Positions 1,657-19,461 of a stretch of 19,461 nucleotides of DNA are shown here, piece by piece; the first letter of the stretch is position 1; each line of letters opens with the position of its first letter. The DNA comes from a virus (lineage: Duplodnaviria; Heunggongvirae; Uroviricota; Caudoviricetes). The notes beneath the pieces are model-generated. The model was not told the origin of the DNA. It saw only the letters and a list, made by a program, of their open reading frames with translations, and did not search any database. The DNA is taken from IMG/VR virus record IMGVR_UViG_2671180427_000015, positions 1 to 19,461 of that record. One strand, given 5' to 3'. The position numbers were made by a program, and so were the translations under genes.

Positions 1657-1698
1657 TATTATGCCGTTAATATGTTGCCATCCGTGGCAATCATGGCG

Positions 1699-3755: not shown

Positions 3756-3934
3756 CTTGTATTCCTCGCACGATGTCTTAGCCACCGGATATCCCACAGG
3801 TGAGCCGTGTAGTTGAAGGTTTTTACGTCAGATTCTTTTGGGATTGGCTTGCGTTTATTTCTGGAGCGTTTCGTTGGAAGGTATTTGCAGTTTTCGCAGA
3901 TTATGTCGGTGATGCTTCGTCGCTGTCGTCTCAT
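3752..3934 (-). CDS. ninE: NinE-like protein
   Basis: 60-aa translation [60 protein letters not shown] matches recalled lambda NinE; start chosen inside the 90-aa track ORF, overlapping the methyltransferase stop. Confidence 0.8.
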
Positions 3935-4458: not shown

Positions 4459-4895
4459 GCAGCCCGATCTCCCCATCGCGCTTTCCATTCGAGAGCCAGT
4501 CGCGCTTCGTCTGACCACTTAACGCCACGCTCTGTACCGAATGCCTGTATAAGCTCTAATAGCTCCGCAAATTCGCTTACACGCATCCTGCTGGTTGACT
4601 GGCCTATTACCACAAAGCCATTCCCGGCAAGGTTAGGAACAACATCCTGCTGCTTTAATGCTGCGGTAAACACACACTTCCAGCTTTCTGCATCCAGCCA
4701 GCGACCATGCCATTCAACCTGACGAGAGACGTCACCTAAGCAGGCCCATAGCTTCCTGTTTTGGTCTAAGCTGCGGTTGCGTTCCTGAATGGTTACTACG
4801 ATTGGTTTGGTTGGGTCTGGAAGGATTTGCTGTACTGCGTGAATAGCGTTTTGCTGATGTGCCGGAGATCGAATTTCAAAGGTTAGTTTTTTCAT
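4455..4895 (-). CDS. ninB: NinB (Orf) recombination mediator
   Basis: 146 aa from MKKLTFEIRSPAHQQ..., matching recalled lambda NinB; GGAGAGGG Shine-Dalgarno upstream; the track ORF begins 6 codons earlier. Confidence 0.85.
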   Translation of the reverse strand: MKKLTFEIRSPAHQQNAIHAVQQILPDPTKPIVVTIQERNRSLDQNRKLWACLGDVSRQVEWHGRWLDAESWKCVFTAALKQQDVVPNLAGNGFVVIGQSTSRMRVSEFAELLELIQAFGTERGVKWSDEARLALEWKARWGDRAA

Positions 4896-4901
4896 GACTT
4901 C

Positions 4902-4932
4902 CCTCTCCCCCAAATAAAAAGGCCTGCGATTA
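4902..4932 (-). terminator. Intrinsic terminator, tR2-like, between ren and ninB
   Basis: On the minus strand a GC-rich 7-8 bp stem (GGCCTGC/GCAGGCC, loop GGTAATC) followed by TTTTTATTT. Confidence 0.6.
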
Positions 4933-4968
4933 CCTGCAGGCCTGTGATTAGCTCAGTGATGTAGATGG

Positions 4969-5259
4969 TCATCTTTTAACTCCATATACCGCCAATATCC
5001 GTTTCATCGTGGCACTCTGGCGACACTCCTTAAAAATCAGGTTCGTGCTCATCTTTCCTTCCCGTTCTTCCTTGGTAGCAAACCGGTAATACACCGTTCG
5101 CCAGACCTTACCTTCGATAACCAGAAGACCTGCCCGTGCCATTTTAGCCGCGGCCTGATTTATGCTGGTTACTGTTGCGCCTGTTAGCGCGGCAACGTCC
5201 GGCGCACAGAAGCTATTATGCGTCCCCAGGTAATGAATAATTGCCTCTTTGCCCGTCAT
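4969..5259 (-). CDS. ren: Ren
   Basis: 96-aa translation matches recalled lambda Ren; positioned between P and tR2/ninB. Confidence 0.85.
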   Translation of the reverse strand: MTGKEAIIHYLGTHNSFCAPDVAALTGATVTSINQAAAKMARAGLLVIEGKVWRTVYYRFATKEEREGKMSTNLIFKECRQSATMKRILAVYGVKR

Positions 5260-5957
5260 ACACTTGCTCCTTTCAGTCCGAACTTAGCTTTAATTTCTGC
5301 GATCTTCGCCAGCGCCTGAACACGATTTAGAGGTCTGCCGCCCATGACAGGAAGTTGTTTTATTGGTTCAGGTATCGTCTCACCACGGTTAATTCGCGCT
5401 GTCATACAGGTCAGTTCATCGGCAGCCTTGCGTCGTAATTCCGCGTCAGTCAGCGCATTGGCCCGCATGTTCTGGTACAGGTTGGTAACCAGCCAGTAGT
5501 GCGCGTTCGATTTCCACGGATAAGACTCTGCATCCGGATACAGGCCTCGCTTCCGGCAATACTCGTAAACCATATCAACCAGCTCGCTGACGTTTGGCAG
5601 TCCGGCGATAACGGATGCTTCTTCCCGGCACCATGCAACAAACTGCCCGGGTGATGGCAGAAATGGTCGATTCTGCCGACGGGCTACGCGCATTCCTGCG
5701 TTAACCTGTTCCATTGTGGTGATCCCGTTTTCCCGGAAAGCCAGAACCCACTGGCGGCGGATTTCGTTCAGTTCGTTCTGGTCACGGTTAGCCAGGCTCG
5801 CCGGGAAAGTTGCCAGTAACTGGCTGAACACACCGTTGATGATCTGCGCTACCTGCTGTACCTGAGGCTTTTCGTCGTACTGTTCCGGCATGTTGTTGGC
5901 GATCCGACGCATCTGCTCACGGTCAAAGTTAACCATCTGTGCGGCGATGTTTTTCAT
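5256..5957 (-). CDS. P: Replication protein P (DnaB helicase loader)
   Basis: 233-aa translation matches recalled lambda P; 4-nt overlap with O stop. Confidence 0.9.
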   Translation of the reverse strand: MKNIAAQMVNFDREQMRRIANNMPEQYDEKPQVQQVAQIINGVFSQLLATFPASLANRDQNELNEIRRQWVLAFRENGITTMEQVNAGMRVARRQNRPFLPSPGQFVAWCREEASVIAGLPNVSELVDMVYEYCRKRGLYPDAESYPWKSNAHYWLVTNLYQNMRANALTDAELRRKAADELTCMTARINRGETIPEPIKQLPVMGGRPLNRVQALAKIAEIKAKFGLKGASV

Positions 5958-6853
5958 AAATCCACCCCGTAAATCCAGTCAGTGTTTGTCAGGTCGAGTT
6001 TTGGTTTGCAGGCTGTCACGCCTGCCTGTTGCTTGTTACGGTTGATTTCGAGCTGGGTCCACTTGTCGCGGAGTTTGGCCGGGCTCAGCACGTTACCGGA
6101 CCAGAAGTTGTCCTGGCATGCCCAGCGGAACAGTACACACATGTCGCGATGGTTACGTCCGTCACGTTCACGCATCAGGCGGATATCGTTAGCCCACCCT
6201 GCAAAATTCGGTTTTCTGGCTGATGGCGCGATGGTCTTCACCATGTCAAACATCCACTCTGCGGCGGTCAGATCTTCTGCTGTCCCCCACCTGCTGCCGC
6301 TCTGAATTGCAGCATCTGGTTTCTCCACAGAAAGATCGTTTTCTGGCTGGTCAGAGGATTCGCCTGAATTCTCTGACGAATAATCTTTTCTTTTTTCTTT
6401 TGTAATAGTGTCTTTTGTGTCCCCCTGTTTTGAGGGATAGCAATCCCTCAATTTGAGGGATGTTTTATCCCTCGTTTTAGGGGATTTTCCCTCGTTTTGA
6501 GGGATACACCATTCTGAGATGTTTTTATTTGGTCCAAACATGCCGCCTTGCTGCTTGATAATATTCATTCTGACGAGTTCTAACTTGGCTTCATTGCACC
6601 GTTTGACGGGTAACTTTGTAATCTCGCTAAGTTGAGAATCGGTGATTCTGTCCATTGGTTTATTCCACCCATAGGTTTTACGCAGAATGGCAAGCAGCAC
6701 TTTAAACTGTCGCTTGGTCAGATCTGCGCCTGAATAAGCCTCAAGCAGCATATTTGATAGTCTGACGTAACCATCATCGAGATCTGCCACATTACGCTCC
6801 TGTTCGGCAAAGTTACCTCTGCCGAAGTTGAGTATTTTTGCTATATTTGTCAT
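5954..6853 (-). CDS. O: Replication initiator O
   Basis: 299-aa translation matches recalled lambda O; contains ori iterons internally. Confidence 0.9.
   Translation of the reverse strand: MTNIAKILNFGRGNFAEQERNVADLDDGYVRLSNMLLEAYSGADLTKRQFKVLLAILRKTYGWNKPMDRITDSQLSEITKLPVKRCNEAKLELVRMNIIKQQGGMFGPNKNISEWCIPQNEGKSPKTRDKTSLKLRDCYPSKQGDTKDTITKEKRKDYSSENSGESSDQPENDLSVEKPDAAIQSGSRWGTAEDLTAAEWMFDMVKTIAPSARKPNFAGWANDIRLMRERDGRNHRDMCVLFRWACQDNFWSGNVLSPAKLRDKWTQLEINRNKQQAGVTACKPKLDLTNTDWIYGVDL
6379..6506. repeat. Origin of replication (ori lambda type): four iterons plus adjacent AT-rich segment inside the O gene
   Basis: Four tandem ~20-bp units each containing an inverted TCCCTC...GAGGGA pair between about 6418 and 6506, flanked at 6379..6417 by a T-rich stretch (TCTTTTCTTTTTTCTTTTGTAATAG). 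Confidence 0.8.
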
Positions 6854-6885
6854 AATGACTCCTGTGGATTGATCCAGTAATTCCC

Positions 6886-7182
6886 TCAGAATTGCATATC
6901 AATTTGCTTAAAATCCTCGGTGGCAGCCGGGGATTTTTTCTTTGTGATTTCATCAAGCGCATACTTAAAAGCCCTGCTAATCGGACTGATGTCTGATGCC
7001 ATTCCGAAAGCACACAAGACCGAAGCAATAAATCTCCAGTCCGTTCTGCTTATCTTCGATTCATGACAGCCAATCATCTTTGCCAAACCGCGCTGTGTAA
7101 GCGTTGATAGGTTGATGAGTAAATCTGTTTCTGCGCGATCAACGTCACGCTGTGATAGTTTGCTGTAACTTGTTCGTTCCAT
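6886..7182 (-). CDS. CII-family lysogeny transcriptional activator (not the lambda allele)
   Basis: 98 aa; C-terminal ...KKKSPAATEDFKQIDMQF resembles lambda CII C-terminus (...KKRPAATERSEQIQMEF); located directly downstream of cro and nutR. Confidence 0.7.
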   Translation of the reverse strand: MERTSYSKLSQRDVDRAETDLLINLSTLTQRGLAKMIGCHESKISRTDWRFIASVLCAFGMASDISPISRAFKYALDEITKKKSPAATEDFKQIDMQF

Positions 7183-7268
7183 TTCTTAATATTTCCAATA
7201 GTGAATTGTTAGTTGACAGGTATGCGTGGAAACGCATATGGCCTTAGTTGGTCAGATATCTTGGGACT

Positions 7269-7313
7269 CGCTTTTCAGCGACGTAGGACGAATGTCCGTT
7301 GTTACAAAGAGCG
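7269..7313 (-). promoter_or_regulatory. nutR-like N-utilisation site (boxA plus boxB hairpin)
   Basis: Minus strand reads CGCTCTTTGTAACAA (boxA-like) then, 18 nt later, CGCTGAAAAGCG (short stem with GAAAA-containing loop), between cro and cII. Confidence 0.5.
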
Positions 7314-7323
7314 GCTCCGCTTA

Positions 7324-7539
7324 TTAAGCGGCTTTGTGTTCCGGCGGGAACACGTCATCAAGACTTACTTTTGCGCCTAACTTGTTTAGGCACGCAACAA
7401 GAGCACGGCATGTTTTAAGGTCTGGGAAGCGACGACCAGATTCCCAATGTCCGATAGCTCCCTGTGTGCATCCAACTGCTTTAGCAAGTTTCGTTTGAGA
7501 GATATTCAGTGACTCTCGATATTTTCGTAGGTTGCTCAT
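7324..7539 (-). CDS. cro: Cro-like HTH repressor (not the lambda allele)
   Basis: 71 aa from internal Met (MSNLRKYRESLNISQTKLAKAVGCTQGAIGHW...) with GGAGGA Shine-Dalgarno at 7543..7548; divergent from cI across an operator region. The 128-aa track ORF would overlap the operators and cI. Confidence 0.75.
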   Translation of the reverse strand: MSNLRKYRESLNISQTKLAKAVGCTQGAIGHWESGRRFPDLKTCRALVACLNKLGAKVSLDDVFPPEHKAA

Positions 7540-7570
7540 ATGTCCTCCGTAGTAACCACGAATAAAAAAA

Positions 7571-7639
7571 TACAATATGTACTCACCAAACACAAGTAAA
7601 AATACATATTGTGCATGGATGGTTCCAGTACAGAGCGTA
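7571..7639. promoter_or_regulatory. Right operator/promoter region (candidate OR sites with divergent pR and pRM)
   Basis: Three related 11-bp elements of form TAC-N5-GT(A/G): TACAATATGTA (7571..7581), TACATATTGTG (7603..7613), TACAGAGCGTA (7629..7639), lying between divergent cro and cI starts. Confidence 0.5.
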
Positions 7640-7656
7640 ATAATAAGGATATGAAA

Positions 7657-8310
7657 ATGAAATGGTATGAACTGGCTAGATCCAGAATGAAAGAGCTCGG
7701 CATAACTCAAGAGAAGTTAGCCGAAGAGCTAGGTATGACGCAGGGTGGAATTGGACACTGGTTGCGCGGATCTCGTCATCCATCTCTTAGTGATATTGGT
7801 GTGGTGTTTAAATACCTTGGTATTGATAACATATCATTCAACCACGACGGGACATTTTCACCTGTTGGCGAATACTCATCGGCCCCAGTTAAAAAACAAT
7901 ATGAGTACCCTGTTTTTTCTCATGTTCAGGCTGGGATGTTCTCTCCAGAACTCAGAACCTTTACCAAAGGCGATGCGGAGAGATTGGTAGGCACAACCAA
8001 AAAAGCCAGTGACTCTGCATTCTGGCTTGAGGTTGAAGGTAACTCAATGACCGCACCAACAGGTTCCAAACCTAGTTTTCCTGACGGGATGTTAATTCTG
8101 GTTGACCCTGAGCAAGCTGTTGAGCCCGGCGATTTCTGCATAGCCAGACTTGGTGGTGATGAATTTACCTTCAAGAAACTGATCAGGGATAGCGGTCAGG
8201 TGTTTCTACAGCCACTAAACCCACAATACCCAATGATCCCATGCAATGAGAGTTGTTCCGTTGTTGGGAAAGTTATCGCTAGTCAGTGGCCTGAAGAGAC
8301 GTTTGGGTGA
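7657..8310 (+). CDS. cI: CI prophage repressor, mosaic: non-lambda N-terminal HTH domain fused to lambda-type S24 (LexA-like) C-terminal domain
   Basis: C-terminal ~130 aa ([19 protein letters not shown]...EVEGNSM...FKKL...[12 protein letters not shown]) matches recalled lambda CI; N-terminal ~85 aa is unrelated to lambda CI. Start placed at ATG 7657 (AAGGA 7 nt upstream); the track ORF starts at 7609. Confidence 0.85.
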
Positions 8311-8380
8311 TGAAGGGCTAAATGTCTCCTAATAAAAACAGCAATCATTTGAAATTATTAATAATTATAGAGGTTTAGTC

Positions 8381-9379
8381 TTGGAAATCAGCACGGCGGT
8401 TATTCATTCCGAAGAAGATGCTTTGCGTTTTGTTGAGATGTACATCGCTGGGCAAGATCTTCCTGATGGAATATCATTTGAAGGGTGGCCTAACTTAACC
8501 TTCCGTCTTACTGGTGACAAATTTCATGGCAGTTTGACTCCTTCTGTCATGAAGGGTTTTGTTGAAATGCAGGCCCAAATAAACCGAGCTTATGCATTGT
8601 TAAAGTACGGAGTTCCTGACCCAAGAAAGCTTTCAAAAGAAGAGAAGGAAGCTATCGAAATTCAGGTGAATGTTGAGAATGGCTCGTCCTTGATAGAAGT
8701 TAATATGGATGGGTTCATGGGTGAGGTTATACAAACTGCGGTGAGTAAAGTGGGCCCTCAAGAGATCGTTATTACAGTTTTAGGGGTCGCTCTTATATGG
8801 GGCGGCGTCGTCCTATTCAAAAAATACCTAGAAGACCGCAAAGAGATTCGCATGGCAGAAGTAAAAAGCGAGTCTGAGCGTGAACACCTTGCGACCATGC
8901 GCTTCATGTCTGAGCAGGAAACAAAACGAAGTGAATTATTGACTCAGATTATTAGCGAAAAACCCAAGCTAGACAACATGGAAAGACTTGCTCATGACGC
9001 AAAAACCGACATAGTTAAATCATTTGTCAAGGCTGATACAGCTCAGATTGATGGCGTTGTATTGGATGCAGATCTATCCAAAACCCTCACTACAAATGCA
9101 AGGCGGAAATCAATGGAGATCCGCCTTGATGGAAATTATCGCATTGAAAAGGTTGACTCCACTGATCCAGAGAGCTTCAAAGTGCAAGTGAGAAATGTTG
9201 ATTCCGATCTAAGAATATCGTGCATAGTACAAGATGTTTTTCTCGACGCATCCGAGCATAAAAAAGCTCTTCAGCAAGCTGAGTGGGATAGAAAACCAGT
9301 TCATTTGTCAATCAACGCAAAAGAACTAGATGGTGAAATAAAGTCCGCGATAATACTTTATGTCAAAGAGATAACATAA
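8381..9379 (+). CDS. Immunity-region cargo protein of unknown function with one central hydrophobic helix (in the position lambda uses for rexA-rexB)
   Basis: 332-aa ORF with TTG start 7 nt after AGAGG; AT-rich; 70 nt downstream of cI on the same strand and followed by an intrinsic terminator; hydrophobic segment IVITVLGVALIWGGVVLF mid-protein; no similarity to RexA/RexB that I can recognise. Confidence 0.6.
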   Translation: MEISTAVIHSEEDALRFVEMYIAGQDLPDGISFEGWPNLTFRLTGDKFHGSLTPSVMKGFVEMQAQINRAYALLKYGVPDPRKLSKEEKEAIEIQVNVENGSSLIEVNMDGFMGEVIQTAVSKVGPQEIVITVLGVALIWGGVVLFKKYLEDRKEIRMAEVKSESEREHLATMRFMSEQETKRSELLTQIISEKPKLDNMERLAHDAKTDIVKSFVKADTAQIDGVVLDADLSKTLTTNARRKSMEIRLDGNYRIEKVDSTDPESFKVQVRNVDSDLRISCIVQDVFLDASEHKKALQQAEWDRKPVHLSINAKELDGEIKSAIILYVKEIT

Positions 9380-9386
9380 TCCTCAT

Positions 9387-9412
9387 CCCGGCCTCAGCGC
9401 CGGGTTTTCTTT
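9387..9412 (+). terminator. Intrinsic terminator ending the cI-cargo transcription unit
   Basis: CCCGGC-CTCAGC-GCCGGG hairpin followed by TTTTCTTT, 8 nt after the ORF stop. Confidence 0.6.
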
Positions 9413-9601
9413 GCCTCACGATCGCTTCACCTAAAAACACATAACCAATTGTATTTATTTGAAAATAAATAGATACAACTCACTAAACCACGCAATTCTG
9501 ATCTCTCCTTACATCGCCGAGGCAATACACCCATGCTAAAAAACAATACTATTAAATACAAAGCGTTGTAAAAAACCACCTCGTTTTAAGAACAAATTGT
9601 A

Positions 9602-9630
9602 TTGATAAAGCAAAATACATATCGTACTAT
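9602..9630 (+). promoter_or_regulatory. pL-like promoter with overlapping operator
   Basis: TTGATA -17 nt- TACTAT; the element TACATATCGTA (9616..9626) matches the OR-type TAC-N5-GTA sites and overlaps the spacer/-10. Confidence 0.45.
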
Positions 9631-9676
9631 TTAACCATCAGCAGGACGCTGGAAGCCAAACGGAACAAACTGGCAG

Positions 9677-9722
9677 GCTCTTTAAACAACGTCGAACTCT
9701 CGACTACGTGGCTGAAAAGCCA
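9677..9722 (+). promoter_or_regulatory. nutL-like site (boxA plus boxB hairpin)
   Basis: GCTCTTTAAACAA (boxA-like) followed 19 nt later by TGGCTGAAAAGCCA (4-bp stem, TGAAAA loop), upstream of N. Confidence 0.5.
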
Positions 9723-9819
9723 GATCACCCAACCACATGAGCTGTGGGATGCAATGCCGAAGCAACCGTCTAGGAGTAGCTTCGAGATTGCATCGCCAAA
9801 GTTTATTCGGGAGGAATCT

Positions 9820-10092
9820 ATGTCCAGAAAAACAGAATTTAAAGGCACCGCAGCTTCTCGCCGTAGAGCTCGTCGCGCAAATCTGCAAAGTCAGGAGGCG
9901 ATTAGCTCCGACAAACTACACAGGCCAACCCCCTCACGAGTGGTCTTGCAATGCAAACGCAAACCAGCAATGAGAGCAGAAGTAATAACACTGACAACGT
10001 TGACCAGAAAATATGAAGGCTCAACTTGTCTTCCAAATGTAGCTCTTTACGCGGCAGGCTACAGGAAATCAAAACAACTGACAGCAAGGTGA
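9820..10092 (+). CDS. N: N-like transcription antiterminator (arginine-rich motif; not lambda N)
   Basis: 90 aa from ATG 9820 (GGGAGG upstream); N-terminal arginine-rich motif GTAASRRRARRANLQ; first gene after pL/nutL. C-terminus resembles what I recall of the P22 gene 24 product, but that recollection is unverified. Confidence 0.7.
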   Translation: MSRKTEFKGTAASRRRARRANLQSQEAISSDKLHRPTPSRVVLQCKRKPAMRAEVITLTTLTRKYEGSTCLPNVALYAAGYRKSKQLTAR

Positions 10093-10150
10093 CTTGTGTT
10101 GATCGCCAGAAAATGAAATTAGGCATCAAACCACTTATTTGAGGTGATAT

Positions 10151-10237
10151 ATGGAAGAAGAATTTGAAGAGTTCGAAGAGCATCCTCAGGATGTGATGGA
10201 ACAATACCAGGACTATCCTTATGACTACGACTATTGA
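10151..10237 (+). CDS. Small acidic protein, lambda orf28-like
   Basis: 28 codons (MEEEFEEFEEHPQDVMEQYQDYPYDYDY) with GAGGTG Shine-Dalgarno; overlaps the ral start as lambda orf28 does. Confidence 0.5.
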   Translation: MEEEFEEFEEHPQDVMEQYQDYPYDYDY

Positions 10238-10445
10238 TAAAAATCAATGGTGTGGACAATTCAAGCGATGCAATGGATGCAAGCTGCAATCGGAATGCAT
10301 GGTTAAGCCTGAAGAAATGTTTCCTGTAATGGAAGATGGGAAATATGTCGATAAATGGGCAATACGAACGACGGCAATGATTGCCAGAGAACTTGGTAAA
10401 CAGAACAACAAGGCTGCCTGGTGGTGGCCTTTATTTTTGGCATAA
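10221..10445 (+). CDS. ral: Ral restriction-alleviation protein
   Basis: First 66 aa match recalled lambda Ral (MTTTIDKNQWCGQFKRCNGCKLQSECM...); this ORF reads on for 8 more codons (WWWPLFLA) before the stop. Confidence 0.8.
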   Translation: MTTTIDKNQWCGQFKRCNGCKLQSECMVKPEEMFPVMEDGKYVDKWAIRTTAMIARELGKQNNKAAWWWPLFLA

Positions 10446-10603
10446 ACAACAGAATAAACACTGCACTGTGTATTCATTCCAACAAGTGAATACACGGAGC
10501 AATGTCGCTCGTAACCAAACAGGAGCCGACTTGTTCTGATTATTGGAAATCTTCTTTGCCCTCCAATATGAGGGCGATTTTTTATCTGTGAGGATATGAA
10601 CAG

Positions 10604-10972
10604 ATGTCAAACATCAAAAAATACATCATTGATTACGACTGGAAAGCATCAATAGAAATTGAAATCGACCATGACGTAATGACAGAGGAAAAACTTCACC
10701 AGATTAATAATTTCTGGTCAGACTCTGAATACCGACTCAATAAACACGGCTCTGTATTAAATGCTGTATTAATCATGCTGGCGCAACATGCTCTGCTTAT
10801 AGCAATTTCAAGCGACTTAAATGCATATGGTGTTGTGTGTGAGTTCGACTGGAATGATGGAAATGGTCAGGAAGGATGGCCTCCAATGGATGGTAGTGAA
10901 GGAATAAGAATTACCGATATCGATACATCAGAAATATTTGATTCAGATGATATGACTATCAAGGCCGCCTGA
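10604..10972 (+). CDS. ea10: Ea10 (Ssb)-like early protein
   Basis: 122-aa translation matches recalled lambda Ea10 in size, position (between ral and cIII) and sequence. Confidence 0.7.
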   Translation: MSNIKKYIIDYDWKASIEIEIDHDVMTEEKLHQINNFWSDSEYRLNKHGSVLNAVLIMLAQHALLIAISSDLNAYGVVCEFDWNDGNGQEGWPPMDGSEGIRITDIDTSEIFDSDDMTIKAA

Positions 10973-11044
10973 GCGCGGCGTTACCGCATACCAATTACGC
11001 TTCACTCGAGGCGTTTTTCGTTATGTATAAATAAGGAGCACACC

Positions 11045-11209
11045 ATGCAATATGCCATTGCAGGGTGGCCTGTTGCTGGCTGCCCTTCCGAATCTTTACT
11101 TGAACGAATCACCCGTAAATTACGTGACGGATGGAAACGCCTTATCGACATACTTAATCAGCCAGGAGTCCCAAAAAATGGATCAAACAATTATGGCTAT
11201 CCAGACTAA
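11045..11209 (+). CDS. cIII: CIII (FtsH/HflB protease inhibitor)
   Basis: 54-aa translation [54 protein letters not shown] with AAGGAG Shine-Dalgarno; not in the ORF track (<60 aa). Confidence 0.85.
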   Translation: MQYAIAGWPVAGCPSESLLERITRKLRDGWKRLIDILNQPGVPKNGSNNYGYPD

Positions 11210-11321
11210 ATTCACTATCGCCACTTTTATTGGCGATGAAAAGATGTTTCGTGAGGCCGTCGACGCTTATAAAAAATGGATATTAATACTGAAACTGAGA
11301 TCAAGCAAAAGCATTCACTAA
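11178..11321 (+). CDS. kil: Kil (host cell-division inhibitor)
   Basis: 47-aa translation [47 protein letters not shown], the in-frame 3' part of the 89-aa track ORF; overlaps the cIII 3' end as in lambda. Confidence 0.8.
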
Positions 11322-11396
11322 CCCCCTTTCCTGTTTTCCTAATCAGCCTGGCATTTCGCGGGCGATATTTTCACAGCCATTTTCAGGAGTTCAGCC

Positions 11397-11693
11397 ATGA
11401 ACGCTTATTACATTCAGGATCGTCTTGAGGCTCAGAGCTGGGCGCGTCACTACCAGCAGATCGCCCGTGAAGAGAAAGAGGCAGAACTGGCAGACGACAT
11501 GGAAAAAGGCCTGCCCCAGCACCTGTTTGAATCGCTATGCATCGATCATTTACAACGCCACGGGGCCAGCAAAAAAGCCATTACCCGTGCGTTTGATGAC
11601 GATGTTGAGTTTCAGGAGCGCATGGCAGAACACATCCGGTACATAGTTGAAACCATTGCTCACCATCAGGCTGATATTGATTCAGAGGTATAA
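11397..11693 (+). CDS. gam: Gam (RecBCD inhibitor)
   Basis: 98-aa translation matches recalled lambda GamS; CAGGAG Shine-Dalgarno. Confidence 0.9.
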
Positions 11694-11698
11694 AACGG

Positions 11699-12484
11699 AT
11701 GAGTACAGCACTCGCAACGCTGGCAGGGAAGCTGGCTGAACGTGTCGGCATGGATTCTGTCGACCCACAGGAACTGATCACCACTCTTCGCCAGACGGCA
11801 TTTAAAGGTGATGCCAGCGATGCGCAGTTCATCGCATTGCTGATCGTCGCCAACCAGTACGGCCTTAATCCGTGGACGAAAGAAATTTACGCCTTCCCTG
11901 ATAAGCAGAACGGCATTGTTCCGGTGGTGGGCGTTGATGGCTGGTCCCGCATCATCAATGAAAACCAGCAGTTTGATGGCATGGACTTTGAGCAGGACAA
12001 TGAATCCTGTACATGCCGGATTTACCGCAAGGACCGCAATCATCCGATCTGCGTTACCGAGTGGATGGATGAATGCCGCCGCGAACCATTCAAAACCCGC
12101 GAAAGCAGAGAAATCACGGGGCCGTGGCAGTCGCATCCCAAACGGATGTTACGGCATAAAGCCATGATTCAGTGTGCCCGTCTCGCCTTCGGATTTGCTG
12201 GTATCTATGACAAGGATGAAGCCGAGCGCATTGTCGAAAATACCGCATACACTGCAGAACGTCAGCCGGAACGCGACATCACTCCGGTTAACGATGAAAC
12301 CATGCAGGAGATTAACACTCTGCTGATTGCCCTGGATAAAACATGGGATGACGACTTATTGCCGCTCTGTTCCCAGATATTTCGCCGCGACATTCGCGCA
12401 TCGTCAGAACTGACACAGGCCGAAGCAGTGAAAGCTCTTGGATTCCTGAAACAGAAAGCCACTGAGCAGAAGGTGGCTGCATGA
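11699..12484 (+). CDS. bet: Bet (Red-beta single-strand annealing protein)
   Basis: 261-aa translation matches recalled lambda Bet throughout. Confidence 0.95.
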
Positions 12485-13161
12485 CACCGGACATTATCCT
12501 GCAGCGTACCGGAATCGACGTGAGAGCTGTCGAACAGGGGGATGATGCGTGGCACAAATTACGGCTCGGCGTCATCACCGCTTCAGAAGTTCACAATGTG
12601 ATAGCAAAGCCCCGCTCAGGAAAGAAGTGGCCTGACATGAAAATGTCCTACTTCCACACCCTGCTGGCTGAGGTTTGCACCGGTGTGGCTCCGGAAGTTA
12701 ATGCTAAGGCGCTGGCCTGGGGAAAACAGTACGAGAACGACGCCAGAGCCCTGTTTGAGTTCACTTCCGGCGTGAATGTTACTGAATCCCCGATCATCTA
12801 TCGCGACGAAAGTATGCGCACCGCCTGCTCTCCCGATGGTTTATGCAGTGACGGCAACGGCCTTGAACTGAAATGCCCGTTTACCTCCCGGGATTTCATG
12901 AAATTCCGGCTCGGTGGTTTCGAGGCCATAAAGTCGGCTTACATGGCCCAGGTGCAGTACAGCATGTGGGTAACGCGAAAAGATGCCTGGTACTTTGCCA
13001 ACTATGACCCACGAATGAAGCGTGAAGGCCTGCATTATGTCGTGGTTGAGCGGGATGAAAATTACATGGCGAGTTTTGACGAGATGGTGCCGGAGTTCAT
13101 CGAAAAAATGGACGAGGCACTGGCTGAAATTGGTTTTGCATTTGGGGAGCAATGGCGATGA
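12481..13161 (+). CDS. exo: Exo (Red-alpha 5'-3' exonuclease)
   Basis: 226-aa translation matches recalled lambda Exo; 4-nt overlap with bet. Confidence 0.95.
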
Positions 13162-13340
13162 AGCATCCTCACGATAATATCCGGGTAGGCACGATCACTT
13201 TCGTCTACTCCGTTACAAAGCGAGGCTGGGTATTTCCCGGCCTTTCTGTTATCCGAAATCCCCTGAAAGCACAGCGGCTGGCTGAGGAGATAAATAATAA
13301 ACGAGGGGCTGTATGCACAAAGCATCTCCTGTTGAGTTAA
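13158..13340 (+). CDS. orf60a: orf60a-like protein
   Basis: 60 aa from the second in-frame ATG (ATGA overlap with exo stop); matches recalled lambda orf60a. Confidence 0.6.
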
Positions 13341-13504
13341 GAACGAGCATTGAGATGGCACATAGCCTTGCTCAAATTGGAGTCAGGTTTGTGCCAATAC
13401 CAGTAGAAACAGACGAAGAATTTCATACGTTAGCCACATCCCTTTCACAAAAGCTGGAAATGATGGTGGCGAAAGCAGAAGCAGATGAGAGAGACCAGGT
13501 ATGA
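13313..13504 (+). CDS. orf63: orf63-like protein
   Basis: 63-aa ORF in the lambda orf63 position; sequence consistent with recollection. Confidence 0.6.
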   Translation: MHKASPVELRTSIEMAHSLAQIGVRFVPIPVETDEEFHTLATSLSQKLEMMVAKAEADERDQV

Positions 13505-13580
13505 CAACCACGGAATGCATTTTTCTGGCAGCGGGCTTCATATTCTGTGTGCTTATGCTTGCCGACATGGGACTTGTTCA

Positions 13581-13796
13581 ATGACACCTCAGCAGGAAAA
13601 CGCCCTTCGCAGCATTGCCCGTCAGGCTAATTCTGAAATCAAAAAAGCCAGACAGCAGTTTCCGGATAAAAACGTCGATGACATTTGCCGTAGCGTACTG
13701 AAGAAGCACCGCGAAACGGTAACGCTGATGGGATTCACACCGACTCATTTAAGCCTGGCAATCGGCATGTTAAACGGCGTCTTTAAGGAACGATGA
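13581..13796 (+). CDS. orf61: orf61-like protein
   Basis: 71 aa from MTPQQENALRSIARQANSEIKKARQQF...; placed at the internal ATG, which overlaps (ATGA) the stop of a 27-codon upstream ORF. Confidence 0.55.
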   Translation: MTPQQENALRSIARQANSEIKKARQQFPDKNVDDICRSVLKKHRETVTLMGFTPTHLSLAIGMLNGVFKER

Positions 13797-13817
13797 ACAT
13801 GAAAAGCAAAATCATCA

Positions 13818-13842
13818 GGGAGCTACAGGCTCCTTTTTTATT
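13818..13842 (+). terminator. Intrinsic terminator (tL-type) after orf61-like
   Basis: GGGAGC-TACAG-GCTCC(U) hairpin followed by TTTTTTATT. Confidence 0.55.
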
Positions 13843-13894
13843 ATTCGCATTCACCCTCAAGCGTATTAACCAACAATTCAGGGATTAATGGAAG

Positions 13895-14116
13895 ATGGCA
13901 GACATCATTGATTCAGCATCAGAAATTGAAGAATTACAGCGCAACACAGCAATAAAAATGCGCCGCCTGAACCACCAGGCTATATCTGCCACTCATTGTT
14001 GTGAGTGTGGCGATCCGATAGATGAACGAAGACGCCTGGTCGTTCAGGGTTGTCGGACTTGTGCAAGTTGCCAGGAGGATCTGGAGCTTATCAGTAAACA
14101 GAGAGGTTCGAAGTGA
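13895..14116 (+). CDS. TraR/DksA-family C4 zinc-finger protein
   Basis: 73 aa with two CxxC pairs (CCECG...CRTCASC) in the spacing typical of the TraR/DksA zinc finger. Confidence 0.65.
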   Translation: MADIIDSASEIEELQRNTAIKMRRLNHQAISATHCCECGDPIDERRRLVVQGCRTCASCQEDLELISKQRGSK

Positions 14117-14520
14117 GCGAAATTAACTCTCAGGCACTGCGTGAAGCGGCAGAGAAAGCCGGTGAAGATAAGTGGCAGGCTAAAAAAATAAATGGTGATT
14201 TTTTCGTTATTCGTCACGGTAGTTATACAAGACAGCATGGCTACACATCGTATCAACCCATTGCGGAGATTGATTGTAAGCCAGTCCGGGATTTTGTTGC
14301 CAAGGCTAATCCGGCTACCGTGCTGGAATTACTGGATGAACTGGAAGCAGCAAAAAAGCGCATTGCAGAACTGGAAGCGCGGGAAATACTGCTCCCGGAA
14401 CGTAGCAGCATGCTTCATCGAACAGATTTTCACGATGATTACCAAACGGTAATGGCATACAAAGTTTCTGAAGTCATCGATGCAATCCGCGCTACTGGCA
14501 TTCGCATCAAAGGAGAGTGA
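14113..14520 (+). CDS. Ea22-like protein (shorter than lambda Ea22)
   Basis: GTG start in a GTGA overlap with the upstream stop, GAGAGG Shine-Dalgarno; N-terminus MSEINSQALREAAEKA... and C-terminus ...GIRIKGE agree with recalled lambda Ea22 termini; central coiled-coil-like LELLDELEAAKKRIAELEARE. Confidence 0.6.
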   Translation: MSEINSQALREAAEKAGEDKWQAKKINGDFFVIRHGSYTRQHGYTSYQPIAEIDCKPVRDFVAKANPATVLELLDELEAAKKRIAELEAREILLPERSSMLHRTDFHDDYQTVMAYKVSEVIDAIRATGIRIKGE

Positions 14521-14521
14521 G

Positions 14522-15277
14522 ATGATTCACTACCACGGTGGGCCTATTACTCCTGATACGTGCGCAATGAGAGCATGGAAAGGGCGACATGCGTTTATCA
14601 GTTTTGCGCATTCAGGCCAGATCAATCTCGCGGCTGAATACTGTCAGTCGTTCGCGCTGGACAACGGTGCATTCACCGCCTGGAAAGCAGCTGGCAAAAA
14701 CAAAATCGACTGGAGCGATTACTACGAGTTTGTTGCTCGCTGGAAGAATCACCCAGGATTCGATTTTGCCATTATCCCGGATATTATTGATGGCGGAGAG
14801 GAGGAAAATGATGCGCTTCTGAATGAGTGGCCTCACGGAAAACTAGCTGGCGTTCCAGTGTGGCACATGAATGAAAGTGACGCGCGATTTATTCATTTGT
14901 GCAATGAGTTTCCGCGAGTGGCTATCGGTAGTTGTGGCGACTATGACGTAAAGCGCCCAACTCTTGCGGTAGCCAGAATGAAAGACCTGATTCGTCACAT
15001 TGTTGATGGGCATGGTCAGCCGGTTACGAAACTACATGGATTGCGCATGTTAAATCCGCTGATATTCACAAAATTACCCTTAGCCAGCGCAGATAGTACG
15101 AACGTCGCTCGAAACATCGGTATTGATAAAGCCTGGTCTGGGGCTTATGCACCTGCAAGTAAAGAGACACGCGCAGCATTAATGGTAGAACGGATTGAGG
15201 CACACAATAGCCCTGGTTCTCTTGCGTATTGTGAACAACGCGACCGCTTTGAAATGCAATTGCAACTAGCAGTTTAA
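14522..15277 (+). CDS. Candidate queuine tRNA-ribosyltransferase-fold protein (DpdA-like 7-deazaguanine DNA transglycosylase candidate)
   Basis: 251 aa from ATG 14522 (AGGAG 6 nt upstream). Five collinear segments resemble recalled E. coli Tgt motifs: LDNGAF (TDSGGF), FAIIPD (MIFDEC), VAIGS (YAVGG), LHGLRML (YLMGVG), ADSTNVARN (FDCVMPTRNARN). No zinc-binding C-terminal subdomain. Functional call unverified. Confidence 0.5.
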   Translation: MIHYHGGPITPDTCAMRAWKGRHAFISFAHSGQINLAAEYCQSFALDNGAFTAWKAAGKNKIDWSDYYEFVARWKNHPGFDFAIIPDIIDGGEEENDALLNEWPHGKLAGVPVWHMNESDARFIHLCNEFPRVAIGSCGDYDVKRPTLAVARMKDLIRHIVDGHGQPVTKLHGLRMLNPLIFTKLPLASADSTNVARNIGIDKAWSGAYAPASKETRAALMVERIEAHNSPGSLAYCEQRDRFEMQLQLAV

Positions 15278-15287
15278 GGACTAACAA

Positions 15288-16085
15288 ATGACCACTATTA
15301 CCAAAGAACGTATTGAATTGTTCATTAAAAATCCGCTTGAAAACGGGCTTACTCGTGGCGAACAAATGGAACTGGCACGAATTGCACTGGCATCACTGGA
15401 ACGCGAACTGATTCGCCACGAGCATGCCAAATGGTCTGACTCCACATTTGGCTGCGTTGGCCCCATTGGTCCACTGAAACACCTCTCAAAAGAGGCTCTG
15501 GAAGCCGCAGCCGAACCAGACGATCTCAGCTAGTGGGCTGATATGCATTTCCTGTTGTGGGATGCACAGCGCCGTGCTGGCATCAGCGATGCTGAAATTA
15601 CCGCTGCTATGGAAGATAAATTGAAGATCAACATGGAGCGCCAGTGGCCTGAACCAAAAGATGGTGAGCCTCGCTTGCACATTAAAGAACCCGGCAACTC
15701 TCCGGTAATTCCGGATGGTTTATCCACGGTATGCGCTGAGGCTTATCAGGTTGTAGGAGTTATGGCAGATGCGCTTGGTGTATTCGGTGATGCAGCAGTA
15801 CAGAAAGTTCTGGATAACCTGTCACAGCAAAAACTTGTTCACAGAGATGTGCTGCCGTTCTCGCTTCCGGTGACTCCGGATGGTTGGATAAGCTGTAGTG
15901 AGCGAATGCCGAAAGAAACGGGTGACATTATTGTTGTTTCGGATGGCATTGTAATGTCCGGGATTTCTTATTCTCGTCGTGACGGGTTCTATATAGCCGC
16001 ATTGGAGTACGACGACGATGAGCCAATTGGCGGTGTAACCCACTGGATGCCTCTACCAGAACCGCCTCGATTAAAGGAGCTATAA
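15288..16085 (+). pseudogene. MazG-like NTP pyrophosphohydrolase / DUF551 reading frame interrupted by an in-frame amber codon (TAG 15531..15533)
   Basis: Track ORFs 15288..15533 and 15543..16085 are in the same frame, separated by TAG plus three sense codons; a MazG-like helix pattern (...EALEAAAEPDDLS * WADMHFLLWDAQRRAGISDAEITAAMEDKLKINMERQW) spans the stop; C-terminal ...HWMPLPEPP is DUF551-like. No convincing Shine-Dalgarno before the downstream ATG. Confidence 0.5.
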
Positions 16086-16199
16086 TAGTGAACTATTATA
16101 TCTATTTGTATTAAAAGAGTTTTTATAAAATAAATCTCCCAAAGCATGTAAAAACACTGTTAATCTTAACGTGTGTGAAACGTGAAGAGAGGTGTTGAA

Positions 16200-16481
16200 A
16201 TGAGCATTCATGATTTGTGTGAAGATCAAGAGCAATGGGCTATGCAGACCCTTATGGGATCAGGAGTTCTTGCAAGGTGCAGAATCCATAACGATGTAAT
16301 TTTAGACAGCGGAAATGATGCTTCTTCTGCTTATAAATTAGGAACTTACCTATATCAAAAAGATAATAGCTGCAACTTATTCAATACTCTTACTGAAGCC
16401 CGCGACGCAATAAAGGATGCATATGAATCGTATTGTGGGATCGATGATTGCCCACAATGCTCAAAATACATTGACGATTAA
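16200..16481 (+). CDS. Ea8.5-like protein
   Basis: 93 aa from ATG 16200 (AGAGAGG upstream), the same length as lambda Ea8.5 and the same position relative to xis; shares the Cys/His pattern and C-terminal ...CPxC.K.IDD with recalled Ea8.5; AT-rich. Confidence 0.6.
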   Translation: MSIHDLCEDQEQWAMQTLMGSGVLARCRIHNDVILDSGNDASSAYKLGTYLYQKDNSCNLFNTLTEARDAIKDAYESYCGIDDCPQCSKYIDD

Positions 16482-16501
16482 TAATATGAACAAGTAACTA
16501 T

Positions 16502-16557
16502 CCTCGCACTCGCGGGGATTTCTTTTATCTGAACTCGCTACGGCGAGTTTTGTTTTA
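16502..16557 (+). terminator. Two tandem intrinsic terminators after the Ea8.5-like gene
   Basis: CCTCGC-ACTC-GCGGGG followed by ATTTCTTTT (16502..16526), and AACTCGC-TACG-GCGAGTT followed by TTGTTTT (16532..16557). Confidence 0.5.
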
Positions 16558-16569
16558 TGGCGATGATAA

Positions 16570-16737
16570 ATGCACTTCCGAGTTACAGGTGAATGGAATG
16601 GAGAACCATTCAACAGAGTTATCGAAGCCGAGAACATCAGCGACTGCTATGACCACTGGATGCTGTGGGCGCAGATAGCACATGCAGACGTAACCAATAT
16701 TCGAATTGAAGAACTGAAAGAACACCAAGCCGCCTGA
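16570..16737 (+). CDS. Small hypothetical protein (55 aa) between two terminators upstream of xis
   Basis: ATG 16570 to TGA 16735..16737, translation MHFRVTGEWNGEPFNRVIEAENISDCYDHWMLWAQIAHADVTNIRIEELKEHQAA; weak ribosome-binding site; stop codon lies in the loop of the following terminator. Confidence 0.4.
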   Translation: MHFRVTGEWNGEPFNRVIEAENISDCYDHWMLWAQIAHADVTNIRIEELKEHQAA

Positions 16738-16752
16738 TGGCGGTTTTTTCTT
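16729..16752 (+). terminator. Intrinsic terminator immediately upstream of xis
   Basis: GCCGCC-TGAT-GGCGG(T) hairpin followed by TTTTTTCTT. Confidence 0.55.
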
Positions 16753-16776
16753 GCGTGTAATTGCGGAGACTTTGCG

Positions 16777-16995
16777 ATGTACTTGACACTTCAGGAGTGG
16801 AACGCTCGCCAGCGACGCCCAAGAAGCCTTGAAACAGTTCGTCGATGGGTGCGCGAATGCAGGATATTCCCTCCTCCGGTTAAGGATGGAAGAGAATATC
16901 TGTTCCACGAATCAGCGGTAAAGGTTGACTTAAATCGACCAGTAACAGGTAGCCTTTTGAAGAGGATCAGAAATGGGAAGAAGGCGAAGTCATGA
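16777..16995 (+). CDS. xis: Excisionase Xis
   Basis: 72-aa translation matches recalled lambda Xis; overlaps the int start. Confidence 0.95.
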   Translation: MYLTLQEWNARQRRPRSLETVRRWVRECRIFPPPVKDGREYLFHESAVKVDLNRPVTGSLLKRIRNGKKAKS

Positions 16996-18043
16996 GCGCC
17001 GGGATTTACCCCCTAACCTTTATATAAGAAACAATGGATATTACTGCTACAGGGACCCAAGGACGGGTAAAGAGTTTGGATTAGGCAGAGACAGGCGAAT
17101 CGCAATCACTGAAGCTATACAGGCCAACATTGAGTTATTTTCAGGACACAAACACAAGCCTCTGACAGCGAGAATCAACAGTGATAATTCCGTTACGTTA
17201 CATTCATGGCTTGATCGCTACGAAAAAATCCTGGCCAGCAGAGGAATCAAGCAGAAGACACTCATAAATTACATGAGCAAAATTAAAGCAATAAGGAGGG
17301 GTCTGCCTGATGCTCCACTTGAAGACATCACCACAAAAGAAATTGCGGCAATGCTCAATGGATACATAGACGAGGGCAAGGCGGCGTCAGCCAAGTTAAT
17401 CAGATCAACACTGAGCGATGCATTCCGAGAGGCAATAGCTGAAGGCCATATAACAACAAACCCTGTCGCTGCCACTCGCGCAGCAAAATCAGAGGTAAGG
17501 AGATCAAGACTTACGGCTGACGAATACCTGAAAATTTATCAAGCAGCAGAATCATCACCATGTTGGCTCAGACTTGCAATGGAACTGGCTGTTGTTACCG
17601 GGCAACGAGTTGGTGATTTATGCGAAATGAAGTGGTCTGATATCGTAGATGGATATCTTTATGTCGAGCAAAGCAAAACAGGCGTAAAAATTGCCATCCC
17701 AACAACATTGCATGTTGATGCTCTCGGGATATCAATGAAGGAAACACTTGATAAATGCAAAGAGATTCTTGGCGGAGAAACCATAATTGCATCTACTCGT
17801 CGTGAACCGCTTTCATCCGGCACAGTATCAAGGTATTTTATGCGCGCACGAAAAGCATCAGGTCTTTCCTTCGAAGGGGATCCGCCTACCTTTCACGAGT
17901 TGCGCAGTTTGTCTGCAAGACTCTATGAGAAGCAGATAAGCGATAAGTTTGCTCAACATCTTCTCGGGCATAAGTCGGACACCATGGCATCACAGTATCG
18001 TGATGACAGAGGCAGGGAGTGGGACAAAATTGAAATCAAATAA
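16973..18043 (+). CDS. int: Tyrosine integrase Int
   Basis: 356-aa translation matches recalled lambda Int, including the C-terminal catalytic region ...HELRSLSARLYEKQISDKFAQHLLGHKSDTMASQYRDDRG... Confidence 0.95.
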   Translation: MGRRRSHERRDLPPNLYIRNNGYYCYRDPRTGKEFGLGRDRRIAITEAIQANIELFSGHKHKPLTARINSDNSVTLHSWLDRYEKILASRGIKQKTLINYMSKIKAIRRGLPDAPLEDITTKEIAAMLNGYIDEGKAASAKLIRSTLSDAFREAIAEGHITTNPVAATRAAKSEVRRSRLTADEYLKIYQAAESSPCWLRLAMELAVVTGQRVGDLCEMKWSDIVDGYLYVEQSKTGVKIAIPTTLHVDALGISMKETLDKCKEILGGETIIASTRREPLSSGTVSRYFMRARKASGLSFEGDPPTFHELRSLSARLYEKQISDKFAQHLLGHKSDTMASQYRDDRGREWDKIEIK

Positions 18044-18131
18044 TGATTTTATTTTGACTGATAGTGACCTGTTCGTTGCAACAAATTGATAAGCAATGCT
18101 TTTTTATAATGCCAACTTAGTATAAAAAAGC
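18044..18131. other. attL: lambda P' arm plus 15-bp core (core TTAGTATAAAAAAGC at 18117..18131 as read on the + strand)
   Basis: Sequence 18051..18131 is the reverse complement of the recalled lambda attP P' arm and core (GCTTTTTTATACTAA), with an arm-type Int site ATAGTGACC; sequence immediately right of the core (AGGCTTCAA) matches the bacterial attB flank rather than the phage P arm. Confidence 0.85.
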
Positions 18132-18177
18132 AGGCTTCAACGGATTCATTTTTCTATTTCATAGCCCGGAGCAACCT

Positions 18178-19461
18178 GTGAACACATTTTCAGTTTCCCG
18201 TCTGGCGCTGGCATTGGCTTTTGGCGTGACGCTGACCGCCTGTAGCTCAACACCACCCGATCAACGTCCTTCTGATCAAACCGCGCCTGGTACCTCTTCT
18301 CGCCCGATTCTGTCGGCAAAAGAAGCGCAGAATTTCGATGCTCAACACTATTTTGCATCCCTGACACCAGGTGCTGCAGCGTGGAATCCTTCCCCGATTA
18401 CCCTGCCTGCGCAACCTGACTTTGTTGTCGGCCCGGCGGGTACTCAAGGTGTAACGCATACCACGATTCAGGCGGCGGTAGATGCGGCAATTATCAAGCG
18501 TACCAACAAGCGCCAGTATATTGCCGTGATGCCAGGTGAGTATCAGGGAACGGTATATGTTCCTGCCGCTCCGGGTGGAATTACTCTGTACGGTACAGGT
18601 GAAAAACCGATTGATGTGAAGATTGGGCTTTCCCTTGATGGGGGCATGAGCCCTGCCGACTGGCGTCACGACGTCAACCCGCGCGGCAAATATATGCCAG
18701 GTAAACCAGCGTGGTATATGTACGATAGCTGCCAGAGCAAACGCAGCAACAGTATCGGTGTTCTCTGTTCAGCGGTCTTCTGGTCACAAAACAATGGCCT
18801 GCAACTGCAAAACCTGACCATCGAAAACACGCTGGGCGATAGCGTAGATGCGGGTAACCATCCGGCGGTGGCACTGCGTACTGATGGTGACCAGGTACAG
18901 ATTAACAACGTGAACATTCTCGGTCGTCAGAACACCTTCTTTGTCACCAACAGCGGTGTGCAGAACCGTCTGGAAACGAATCGTCAGCCGCGTACGCTGG
19001 TGACCAACAGCTACATTGAAGGGGATGTGGATATCGTTTCTGGTCGCGGCGCAGTGGTGTTCGATAACACCGAATTCCGCGTGGTGAACTCACGTACTCA
19101 GCAAGAAGCGTATGTGTTTGCACCGGCAACGCTGTCCAACATTTACTACGGTTTCCTCGCTGTAAACAGCCGTTTCAATGCTTCCGGTGATGGCGTGGCG
19201 CAACTGGGCCGCTCGCTGGATGTTGATGCCAATACCAACGGTCAGGTGGTGATCCGTGATAGCGCCATCAACGAAGGTTTTAACACGGCTAAACCGTGGG
19301 CCGATGCGGTGATCTCTAATCGTCCGTTTGCGGGTAATACCGGCAGCGTAGATGATAACGACGAAATACAGCGCAATCTGAATGACACTAACTACAACCG
19401 CATGTGGGAATACAATAACCGCGGCGTGGGTAGTAAAGTGGTTGCAGAGGCGAAGAAGTAA
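18178..19461 (+). CDS. ybhC: Host lipoprotein YbhC (pectinesterase-family outer-membrane lipoprotein) flanking attB-lambda
   Basis: 427-aa ORF with GTG start, signal peptide and lipobox (LTAC); matches recalled E. coli YbhC, the gene adjacent to the lambda attachment site; higher GC than the prophage cargo. Confidence 0.85.
   Translation: MNTFSVSRLALALAFGVTLTACSSTPPDQRPSDQTAPGTSSRPILSAKEAQNFDAQHYFASLTPGAAAWNPSPITLPAQPDFVVGPAGTQGVTHTTIQAAVDAAIIKRTNKRQYIAVMPGEYQGTVYVPAAPGGITLYGTGEKPIDVKIGLSLDGGMSPADWRHDVNPRGKYMPGKPAWYMYDSCQSKRSNSIGVLCSAVFWSQNNGLQLQNLTIENTLGDSVDAGNHPAVALRTDGDQVQINNVNILGRQNTFFVTNSGVQNRLETNRQPRTLVTNSYIEGDVDIVSGRGAVVFDNTEFRVVNSRTQQEAYVFAPATLSNIYYGFLAVNSRFNASGDGVAQLGRSLDVDANTNGQVVIRDSAINEGFNTAKPWADAVISNRPFAGNTGSVDDNDEIQRNLNDTNYNRMWEYNNRGVGSKVVAEAKK

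Follow-up and report, generated by a model that had tools for sequence, protein, structure and literature searches.

A stand-alone DpdA-family gene in the exo-xis accessory block of a lambdoid prophage, a candidate DNA guanine transglycosylase supplied with host 7-deazaguanines

The viral record IMGVR_UViG_2671180427_000015, analyzed here as a single stretch of 19,461 nucleotides (positions 1 to 19,461 of that record; hereafter, the window), covers the early region of a lambdoid Escherichia coli prophage, with the gene order Q, nin, replication, immunity, N, gam-bet-exo, an accessory block, xis-int, and, at the end, host ybhC. The accessory block between exo and xis carries, at positions 14522-15277 of the plus strand, a genuine open reading frame (ORF) that encodes a stand-alone DpdA-like protein of 251 aa, predicted to adopt the (β/α)8 barrel of the TGT superfamily, and is found in the company of Ea22-like, DksA-like, and MazG-like genes, ea8.5, xis, and int. 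Homologues of this protein all open with MIHYHGGP, and the true start is therefore the ATG codon at 14522-14524 and not the one at 14480; a direct reading of the plus strand places a ribosome-binding site, AGGAG (14511-14515), 6 nt upstream of this codon. A prophage of E. coli RM14721 matches positions 10444-19461 of the window with 98.7% identity. BLASTN found no match to that prophage for positions 6948-10443 (the immunity region, from the replication genes to N) and 96 to 99% identity elsewhere, which is the usual lambdoid mosaic exchange of the immunity module. The only match of a megablast search with the gene against 50,697 phage records was one Stx1a-converting phage, not lambda, consistent with an earlier statement, in a preliminary description made from the sequence alone, that the gene sits in a cargo block absent from lambda.

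The same description pointed out that the protein carries five short motifs in the order known from bacterial queuine tRNA-ribosyltransferases and lacks their zinc-binding C-terminal subdomain. All five motifs are indeed present, collinear, and conserved in the viral homologues, and the CxCxxC motif is absent from the protein. The motifs, all encoded on the plus strand, are LDNGAF (residues 46-51, positions 14657-14674), IIPD (residues 84-87, the beginning of the IIPDIIDG segment, residues 84-91, positions 14771-14794), AIGS (residues 134-137), HGLRML (residues 172-177, positions 15035-15052), and ADSTNVARN (residues 190-198, positions 15089-15115); another conserved segment, PVWHMNE (residues 112-118, positions 14855-14875), lies between the second and the third of these. 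Residue conservation was counted over 208 unique viral homologues. Residues D47, P86-D87, G136, H172, L174, R175, S189, D191, and S192 are retained in 206 to 208 of them, and D47, D87, H115, H172, D191, and S192 are each found in 207 to 208 (207 for D47 and D87, all 208 for the other four). Somewhat lower counts were obtained for F51 (199 of 208), S137 (198 of 208), and D90 (141 of 208). Because the motif residues are nearly invariant across the 208 homologues, the five motifs are not chance matches.

The likely roles of these residues can be predicted by analogy with the bacterial DpdA (bDpdA) of Salmonella Montevideo, in which Asp95 serves as the acid/base, Asp130 and His181 recognize the base, Asp256 is the nucleophile, and Phe99 forms a gate (Gedara 2023, PMC10164549). 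D47 is predicted to be the general acid/base (the counterpart of Asp95), F51 the base-stacking gate (Phe99), D87 the base-recognition Asp (Asp130), and D191 the covalent nucleophile (Asp256 of bDpdA and Asp280 of TGT), with H115 as a candidate equivalent of His181 in base recognition. H172 and D191 also appear analogous to H226 and D248, the catalytic pair of the type IV CBASS protein Cap10 that is described in a bioRxiv preprint (10.1101/2025.04.06.647259).

A comparison with an experimentally validated enzyme is that with DpdA1 of Escherichia phages CAjan and 9g, which are DNA transglycosylases that insert dPreQ0 and dG+. The family profile, a 57-member alignment (A2) reaching down to 33% identity, was aligned by hhalign to the CAjan DpdA sequence with 98.9% probability (E = 1.7e-17, 175 columns) and to the CAjan DpdA1 family profile with the same probability (E = 1.6e-17, 185 columns). 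These alignments pair LDNGAF with LDSGAFS, PVWH with PCFH, KLHGLR with KVHGFG, and SADST with SCDSS, so that ADSTNVARN corresponds to the CDSSS segment of DpdA1 and H115 is aligned to H131/H132. All three active-site Asp residues are present in the window protein: D47 is aligned to D62/63 and D191 to D205/206 of DpdA1, whereas the register of the second Asp is uncertain, as hhalign pairs D90-G91 with D104-G105 of DpdA1 and yet it is D87 that is nearly invariant (DpdA of Salmonella phage 7-11 retains D87 and has a Gly at position 90). H172 and D191 are separated by 19 residues, exactly as are H187 and D206 in CAjan DpdA1. Thus, the two proteins share the LDxGAF, PxxH, H-19-D, and xDSS motifs, and both lack the CxCxxC zinc motif, so that the missing zinc subdomain is no departure from phage DpdA. 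The differences include the low overall identity (∼22%), the length (251 aa versus 306 aa), and the genomic setting, as DpdA1 is encoded in a folE-queD-queC-queE-yhhQ cluster and modifies ∼30% of G. The isoelectric points of the window protein (6.45) and CAjan DpdA (6.26) do not discriminate with respect to DNA binding.

Other comparisons gave concordant results. The window protein is matched by PHROG_887, annotated as “queuine tRNA-ribosyltransferase” (E = 2.6e-101), and BLASTP aligns it with 7-11 DpdA at 35% identity (E = 8e-32). An AlphaFold2 model built on the 57-sequence alignment (pLDDT 92.7) is an eight-stranded β/α barrel of the TGT-type (β/α)8 form; a shallower alignment of 23 sequences with at least 65% identity yielded an unusable model (pLDDT 59). 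A Foldseek search of BFVD with this model returned 26 matches at E ≤ 1e-3, all of the named matches being annotated as “queuine tRNA-ribosyltransferase” of phages; further down, near E = 3e-3, were the proteins of nt-1 and phiST. The PHROG, hhalign, BLASTP, and BFVD results agree with the TGT-fold, DpdA-like assignment proposed in the preliminary description, and we consider it nearly certain that the window protein belongs to the phage DpdA family.

Signature databases, by comparison, are silent on this protein. No match to the window protein was found in Pfam, NCBIfam, PADLOC, or PDB sequences, none of the 57 family members matched Pfam, the 57-member profile retrieved only spurious GCN4 matches from PDB sequences, and the Foldseek search of PDB produced an uninformative set of generic TIM barrels with E > 4e-3. 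Together with the failure of hhalign to connect the family profile with the single sequence of E. coli Tgt (probability, 0.8%), these results are what would be expected if the protein were a generic TIM barrel, or a decayed and inactive remnant, with a merely fortuitous likeness to the TGT motifs. Such an explanation is very improbable, given the hhalign match to DpdA1 at E = 1.6e-17, the existence of more than 7,700 homologues, the near-invariance of the catalytic residues in 208 viral sequences down to ∼33% identity, and a genomic linkage of its relatives to yhhQ and queE genes (see below) that would be unexpected for an unrelated barrel; on the basis of homology and conservation, it can be regarded as effectively excluded. 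The silence of Pfam does not refute the assignment because published phage DpdAs also escape this database: CAjan DpdA and 7-11 DpdA have no Pfam match either. A search of PDB sequences with CAjan DpdA found nothing. In the profile check proposed in the preliminary description, there was no match to the Pfam TGT domain and a clear profile match to DpdA1. To count the lack of a TGT hit in Pfam as a refutation would be to reject the assignment wrongly, as no Pfam model detects even a validated phage DpdA.

As a bioinformatic class, this assignment is already known. The third group of phages delineated by Hutinet et al. (2019, Nat Commun, PMC6884629) consists of 76 phages that encode DpdA and lack the genes for preQ0 or G+, and this “DpdA only” group includes Salmonella phages SPN3UB (YP_007011024), BTP1, SEN1, and 7-11, as well as Enterobacteria phages SfI and HK106. 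The SPN3UB protein, which was listed as DpdA in that work, shares 92.4% identity with the window protein, compared with 67% for the SfI protein and 35% for the one from 7-11. The same authors suggested that “DpdA only” phages may use host preQ0 (PMC6884629), so that the interpretation offered in the preliminary description, a stand-alone DpdA that feeds on the queuosine-precursor pool of the host, is essentially the published hypothesis; for DpdA of lambdoid phages or of the exo-xis region, nothing beyond the 2019 paper was found in the literature searched. The window gene fits this group in being a single gene in a phage without preQ0 synthesis genes, and most members of the group are likewise temperate lambdoid or P22-like phages. 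It differs from its SPN3UB orthologue in location: the SPN3UB gene is found in the nin region, after the replication genes, whereas the window copy resides in the exo-xis block of an E. coli prophage with a ybhC-side attachment site. The gene thus behaves as a single-gene cassette.

Genomic neighborhoods of the relatives provide evidence that the present analysis adds to what was known of the family. In the window itself, six-frame translation revealed no homologues of FolE, QueD, QueE, QueC, or YhhQ, in agreement with the earlier statement that preQ0 biosynthesis genes are lacking there. Neighborhoods were compared in a close set of 80 IMG/VR loci with at least 67% identity and in a set of ∼160 more distant viral loci. 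There is no constant neighbor among the 80 close loci, where MazG-like genes are found in 24 cases, DksA-like genes in 21, and Ea22-like genes in 17. In 21 loci, whose DpdA-like proteins are 39 to 56% identical to the window protein, the gene is overlapped, often through an ATGA tetranucleotide, by a gene for the preQ0 transporter YhhQ (Vut_1, PF02592); these are L175 (10001-11214), L155 (1598-2877), L173 (452-1635), L161 (2438-3705), and 17 more IMG/VR loci. The two overlapping genes form a two-gene “import and insert” module. A gene for QueE (7-carboxy-7-deazaguanine synthase) adjoins the DpdA-like gene in 7 loci, with relatives that are 47 to 51% identical, including L115 (8912-10296), L103 (507-1894), L105, L121, L151, and L209 (342-1683); one of these QueE proteins scores 322.9 bits against TIGR04508, over its cutoff of 240 bits. 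These lone queE genes are not accompanied by those for QueC, QueD, or FolE in the flanks of up to 10 kb (several of the contigs are only 4 to 6 kb long), which hints that some relatives may use CDG rather than preQ0. In Caulobacter phage DMCA (L085, 7705-8726) and in the metagenomic locus L095 (9711-10699), a truncated-looking QueD/PTPS-like gene encoding 94 to 98 aa, whose identity is weakly supported by Pfam and NCBIfam, lies immediately upstream of, and overlaps, the DpdA-like gene.

DNA methyltransferase genes (Dam-like D12, N6, or C5) are another kind of partner. Of 239 loci, 18 have such a gene next to, and in the same orientation as, the DpdA-like one, the two in most cases sharing 4 nt (ATGA); 8 of the 18 belong to the close group. 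Examples are L052, L059, L072, L075, L079, L081, L202, L205, and L212, and the arrangement is also seen in L086 (6740-8830). In Pseudomonas phage Epa33, the next gene encodes a C5 methylase. Two apparent domain fusions were considered and set aside: P0234 (Dam::DpdA-like) is truncated on both sides and counts for adjacency only, and P0268, a fusion to a baseplate hub protein, looks chimeric and was not used. Linkage to genes for YhhQ, QueE, and methyltransferases suggests a connection of this clade with the supply of 7-deazaguanines and with modules for DNA modification.

The other known systems are more distant. The Tgt proteins (PF01702, including ArcTGT) differ from the window protein, which has no PF01702 match, zinc subdomain, or tRNA-binding insertions and is ∼120 residues shorter. 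The Salmonella Montevideo bDpdA (PDB 7UI4) is 14% identical to it and carries a CXCX2CX22H zinc site that the window protein lacks; neither the DpdB partner (a ParB-like ATPase) nor the dpdC-K cluster of the bacterial Dpd system is found beside the window gene. Cap10 (PDB 9NTN), which handles protein-linked deazaguanine, shows 10% identity and no sequence-profile link, and its operon partners, the QueC-like Cap9 and the CD-NTase, are absent from the window, where the context is that of a prophage early operon. Such comparisons bear on the alternative that the protein is a diverged TGT-fold enzyme that binds 7-deazaguanine and acts on an acceptor other than DNA, either tRNA or a protein-linked deazaguanine as in Cap10, and that might, for example, interfere with deazaguanine-dependent immunity or Q-tRNA metabolism of the host. 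Its appeal lies in the resemblance of H172/D191 to H226/D248 of Cap10, a marginal top match to Cap10, the absence of the nucleic-acid-binding C-terminal and Ins8 elements of bDpdA and TGT, the very low DNA modification in phage 7-11, and the placement of stand-alone DpdAs in a separate similarity-network cluster whose function was questioned in 2019. However, the profile homology of the window protein is to DpdA1 (98.9%) and not to Cap10 or TGT, PADLOC returned no match and neither Cap9 nor a CD-NTase is available as a partner, the tRNA-binding zinc subdomain is missing, and the recurrent methyltransferase neighbors suggest that the enzyme acts on DNA; the linkage to yhhQ and queE fits an acceptor of either kind and favors neither. 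A non-DNA acceptor therefore appears unlikely.

In the window, the gene immediately upstream of the DpdA-like one in the early-left transcription unit is the Ead/Ea22-like gene (14113-14520, plus strand; PF13935, E = 2.6e-17), whose stop codon (14518-14520) adjoins the start codon of the DpdA-like gene (tGAgATG), an arrangement that implies translational coupling. No sigma-70-like promoter was found on the plus strand between positions 9630 and 18003, leaving the DpdA-like gene without a promoter of its own; this and the coupling to the Ea22-like gene indicate that it is read within the pL delayed-early transcript. A terminator-like hairpin followed by a T-run is found within the pL operon at 13817-13835 (plus strand), just upstream of the DksA/TraR-like gene (13895-14116), and the accessory block with the DpdA-like gene would be reached only by transcription that is antiterminated past this hairpin. 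Immediately downstream, at 15288-16085 of the plus strand, there is a gene for a MazG-like dATP/dGTP pyrophosphohydrolase (PF04447) with a DUF551 domain, both halves of which are recognized by Pfam. The two halves share the frame and are split by an in-frame TAG (15531-15533) that replaces the GAG of E. coli RM14721; over 800 nt, the two sequences do not differ otherwise, which marks the nonsense mutation as recent. The preliminary description was right to place a MazG-like frame next to the DpdA-like gene, although this frame is broken and is not a conserved partner. A functional DpdA-MazG pair was considered and rejected in view of this nonsense mutation and of the presence of a MazG-like gene beside the DpdA-like one in only 24 of the 80 close loci.

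This location raises the alternative that a DpdA-type enzyme is aimed at the host chromosome, or at co-resident DNA, during induction and does not serve to protect phage DNA; through guanine exchange or as a glycosylase, it could mark or damage such DNA, or else its role could lie in superinfection or competition. The genes of the exo-xis block, to which the window gene belongs, are generally regarded as acting on the host rather than on phage DNA metabolism, and this alternative would also accommodate a mobile single-gene cassette (exo-xis here, nin in SPN3UB) and the low modification of 7-11 DNA. Weighing on the other side are the lack of a lysogen-type promoter and the coupling of the gene to the pL early operon, the consideration that a transglycosylase made alongside replicating phage DNA would modify that DNA too, the adjacency of orphan methyltransferases, which is typical of self-protective phage modification, and the absence of any known precedent for DpdA as a toxin. 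On balance, we consider a host-directed role quite unlikely.

The interpretation that we favor is that of a stand-alone DpdA-family DNA guanine transglycosylase that uses the 7-deazaguanine pool of the host, to which we would assign a probability of roughly 0.6; the identity of the substrate, action on DNA, and a benefit against restriction are all inferred. Given its position in the pL early-left operon, the protein should appear after induction or infection and not in the lysogen. The enzyme would then flip a guanine out of double-stranded DNA; D191 would displace this base, producing a covalent enzyme-deoxyribose intermediate, with D47 as the acid/base; and a free 7-deazaguanine made by the host, held by D87, H115, and F51, would resolve the intermediate. 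As the phage has no synthesis genes of its own, this base must come from the queuosine pathway of E. coli. The latter makes preQ0 and preQ1, of which the first, and possibly the second, could be inserted, as could a derivative eventually found as dADG. Progeny phage DNA would carry 7-deazaguanine at few sites, probably in a sequence-specific manner, and these marks would weaken restriction by the next host. The use of host precursors is feasible, as other phage enzymes show: DpdA of phage 9g and DpdA2 of nt-1, expressed alone in E. coli, insert 84 to 1,607 dPreQ0 per 10^6 nt, which are lost in a queD deletion mutant, and DpdA2 of VH7D inserts host preQ1. In phage CAjan, deletion of dpdA abolishes dPreQ0 (PMC6884629).

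Several observations weigh against this interpretation. In none of the 80 closest loci is there a precursor gene within 10 kb, and the window protein is not recognized by Pfam, NCBIfam, or PDB searches, nor does its family profile connect to E. coli Tgt. The C-terminal part of the protein is short, with 60 residues after the nucleophile Asp versus ∼100 in DpdA1, and has no counterpart of the Ins8/Zn module with which bDpdA binds DNA. In the similarity network of Hutinet et al., the stand-alone DpdAs of gamma-proteobacterial phages constitute a separate cluster with a possibly diverged function (PMC6884629). Among enterobacterial “DpdA only” phages, that work assayed 7-11 alone, the DNA of which contained 50 dADG per 10^6 nt, or ∼0.02% of G (PMC6884629), a level that may be too low to protect DNA. 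Phage Orion, from the stand-alone group of mycobacteriophages, had none, with neither Orion nor its host making preQ0 (PMC6884629).

It is also conceivable, if rather improbable, that the stand-alone clade, found in temperate enterobacterial phages that include Stx-converting ones, has an activity distinct from that of DpdA1 and is not simply a weak copy of the latter. One possibility within this reading is an epigenetic or anti-defence signal consisting of rare, motif-specific, host-derived 7-deazaguanine marks that the enzyme places on the DNA of the phage and perhaps of the host; a second is a Cap10-like switch to a non-DNA acceptor, which would disturb the deazaguanine-dependent immunity of the host.

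Genes of this family are very common. A word-index search of 90%-identity cluster representatives retrieved at least 7,710 homologues at E ≤ 0.001, and a library of 50%-identity representatives contained 784 at E ≤ 1e-3. A close DNA copy is present in 204 of the 5,426 complete E. coli genomes, in addition to the copy in the Stx1a-converting phage mentioned above, and the exact window protein is encoded on at least 1,000 contigs, without exception as a “hypothetical protein.” Phage DpdA escapes the models of both Pfam-A and NCBIfam: the window protein is missed by both, and the DpdAs of CAjan (L003, 28848-29768) and 7-11 are missed by Pfam; this is the reason why annotation pipelines for bacterial genomes give the gene such a label. 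A confident annotation for such a frequent protein is a practical gain. The role of stand-alone DpdAs has been an explicit question since 2019, one that can be easily addressed with E. coli genetics. If host-derived 7-deazaguanines are indeed inserted into the DNA of these temperate phages, this could influence restriction evasion and, through it, host range and the dissemination of toxin-converting phages, and it might alter how such DNA behaves in sequencing and in digestion with restriction enzymes; the same phages could also be exposed to modification-dependent defences, among them GrwAB and the Dag glycosylases.

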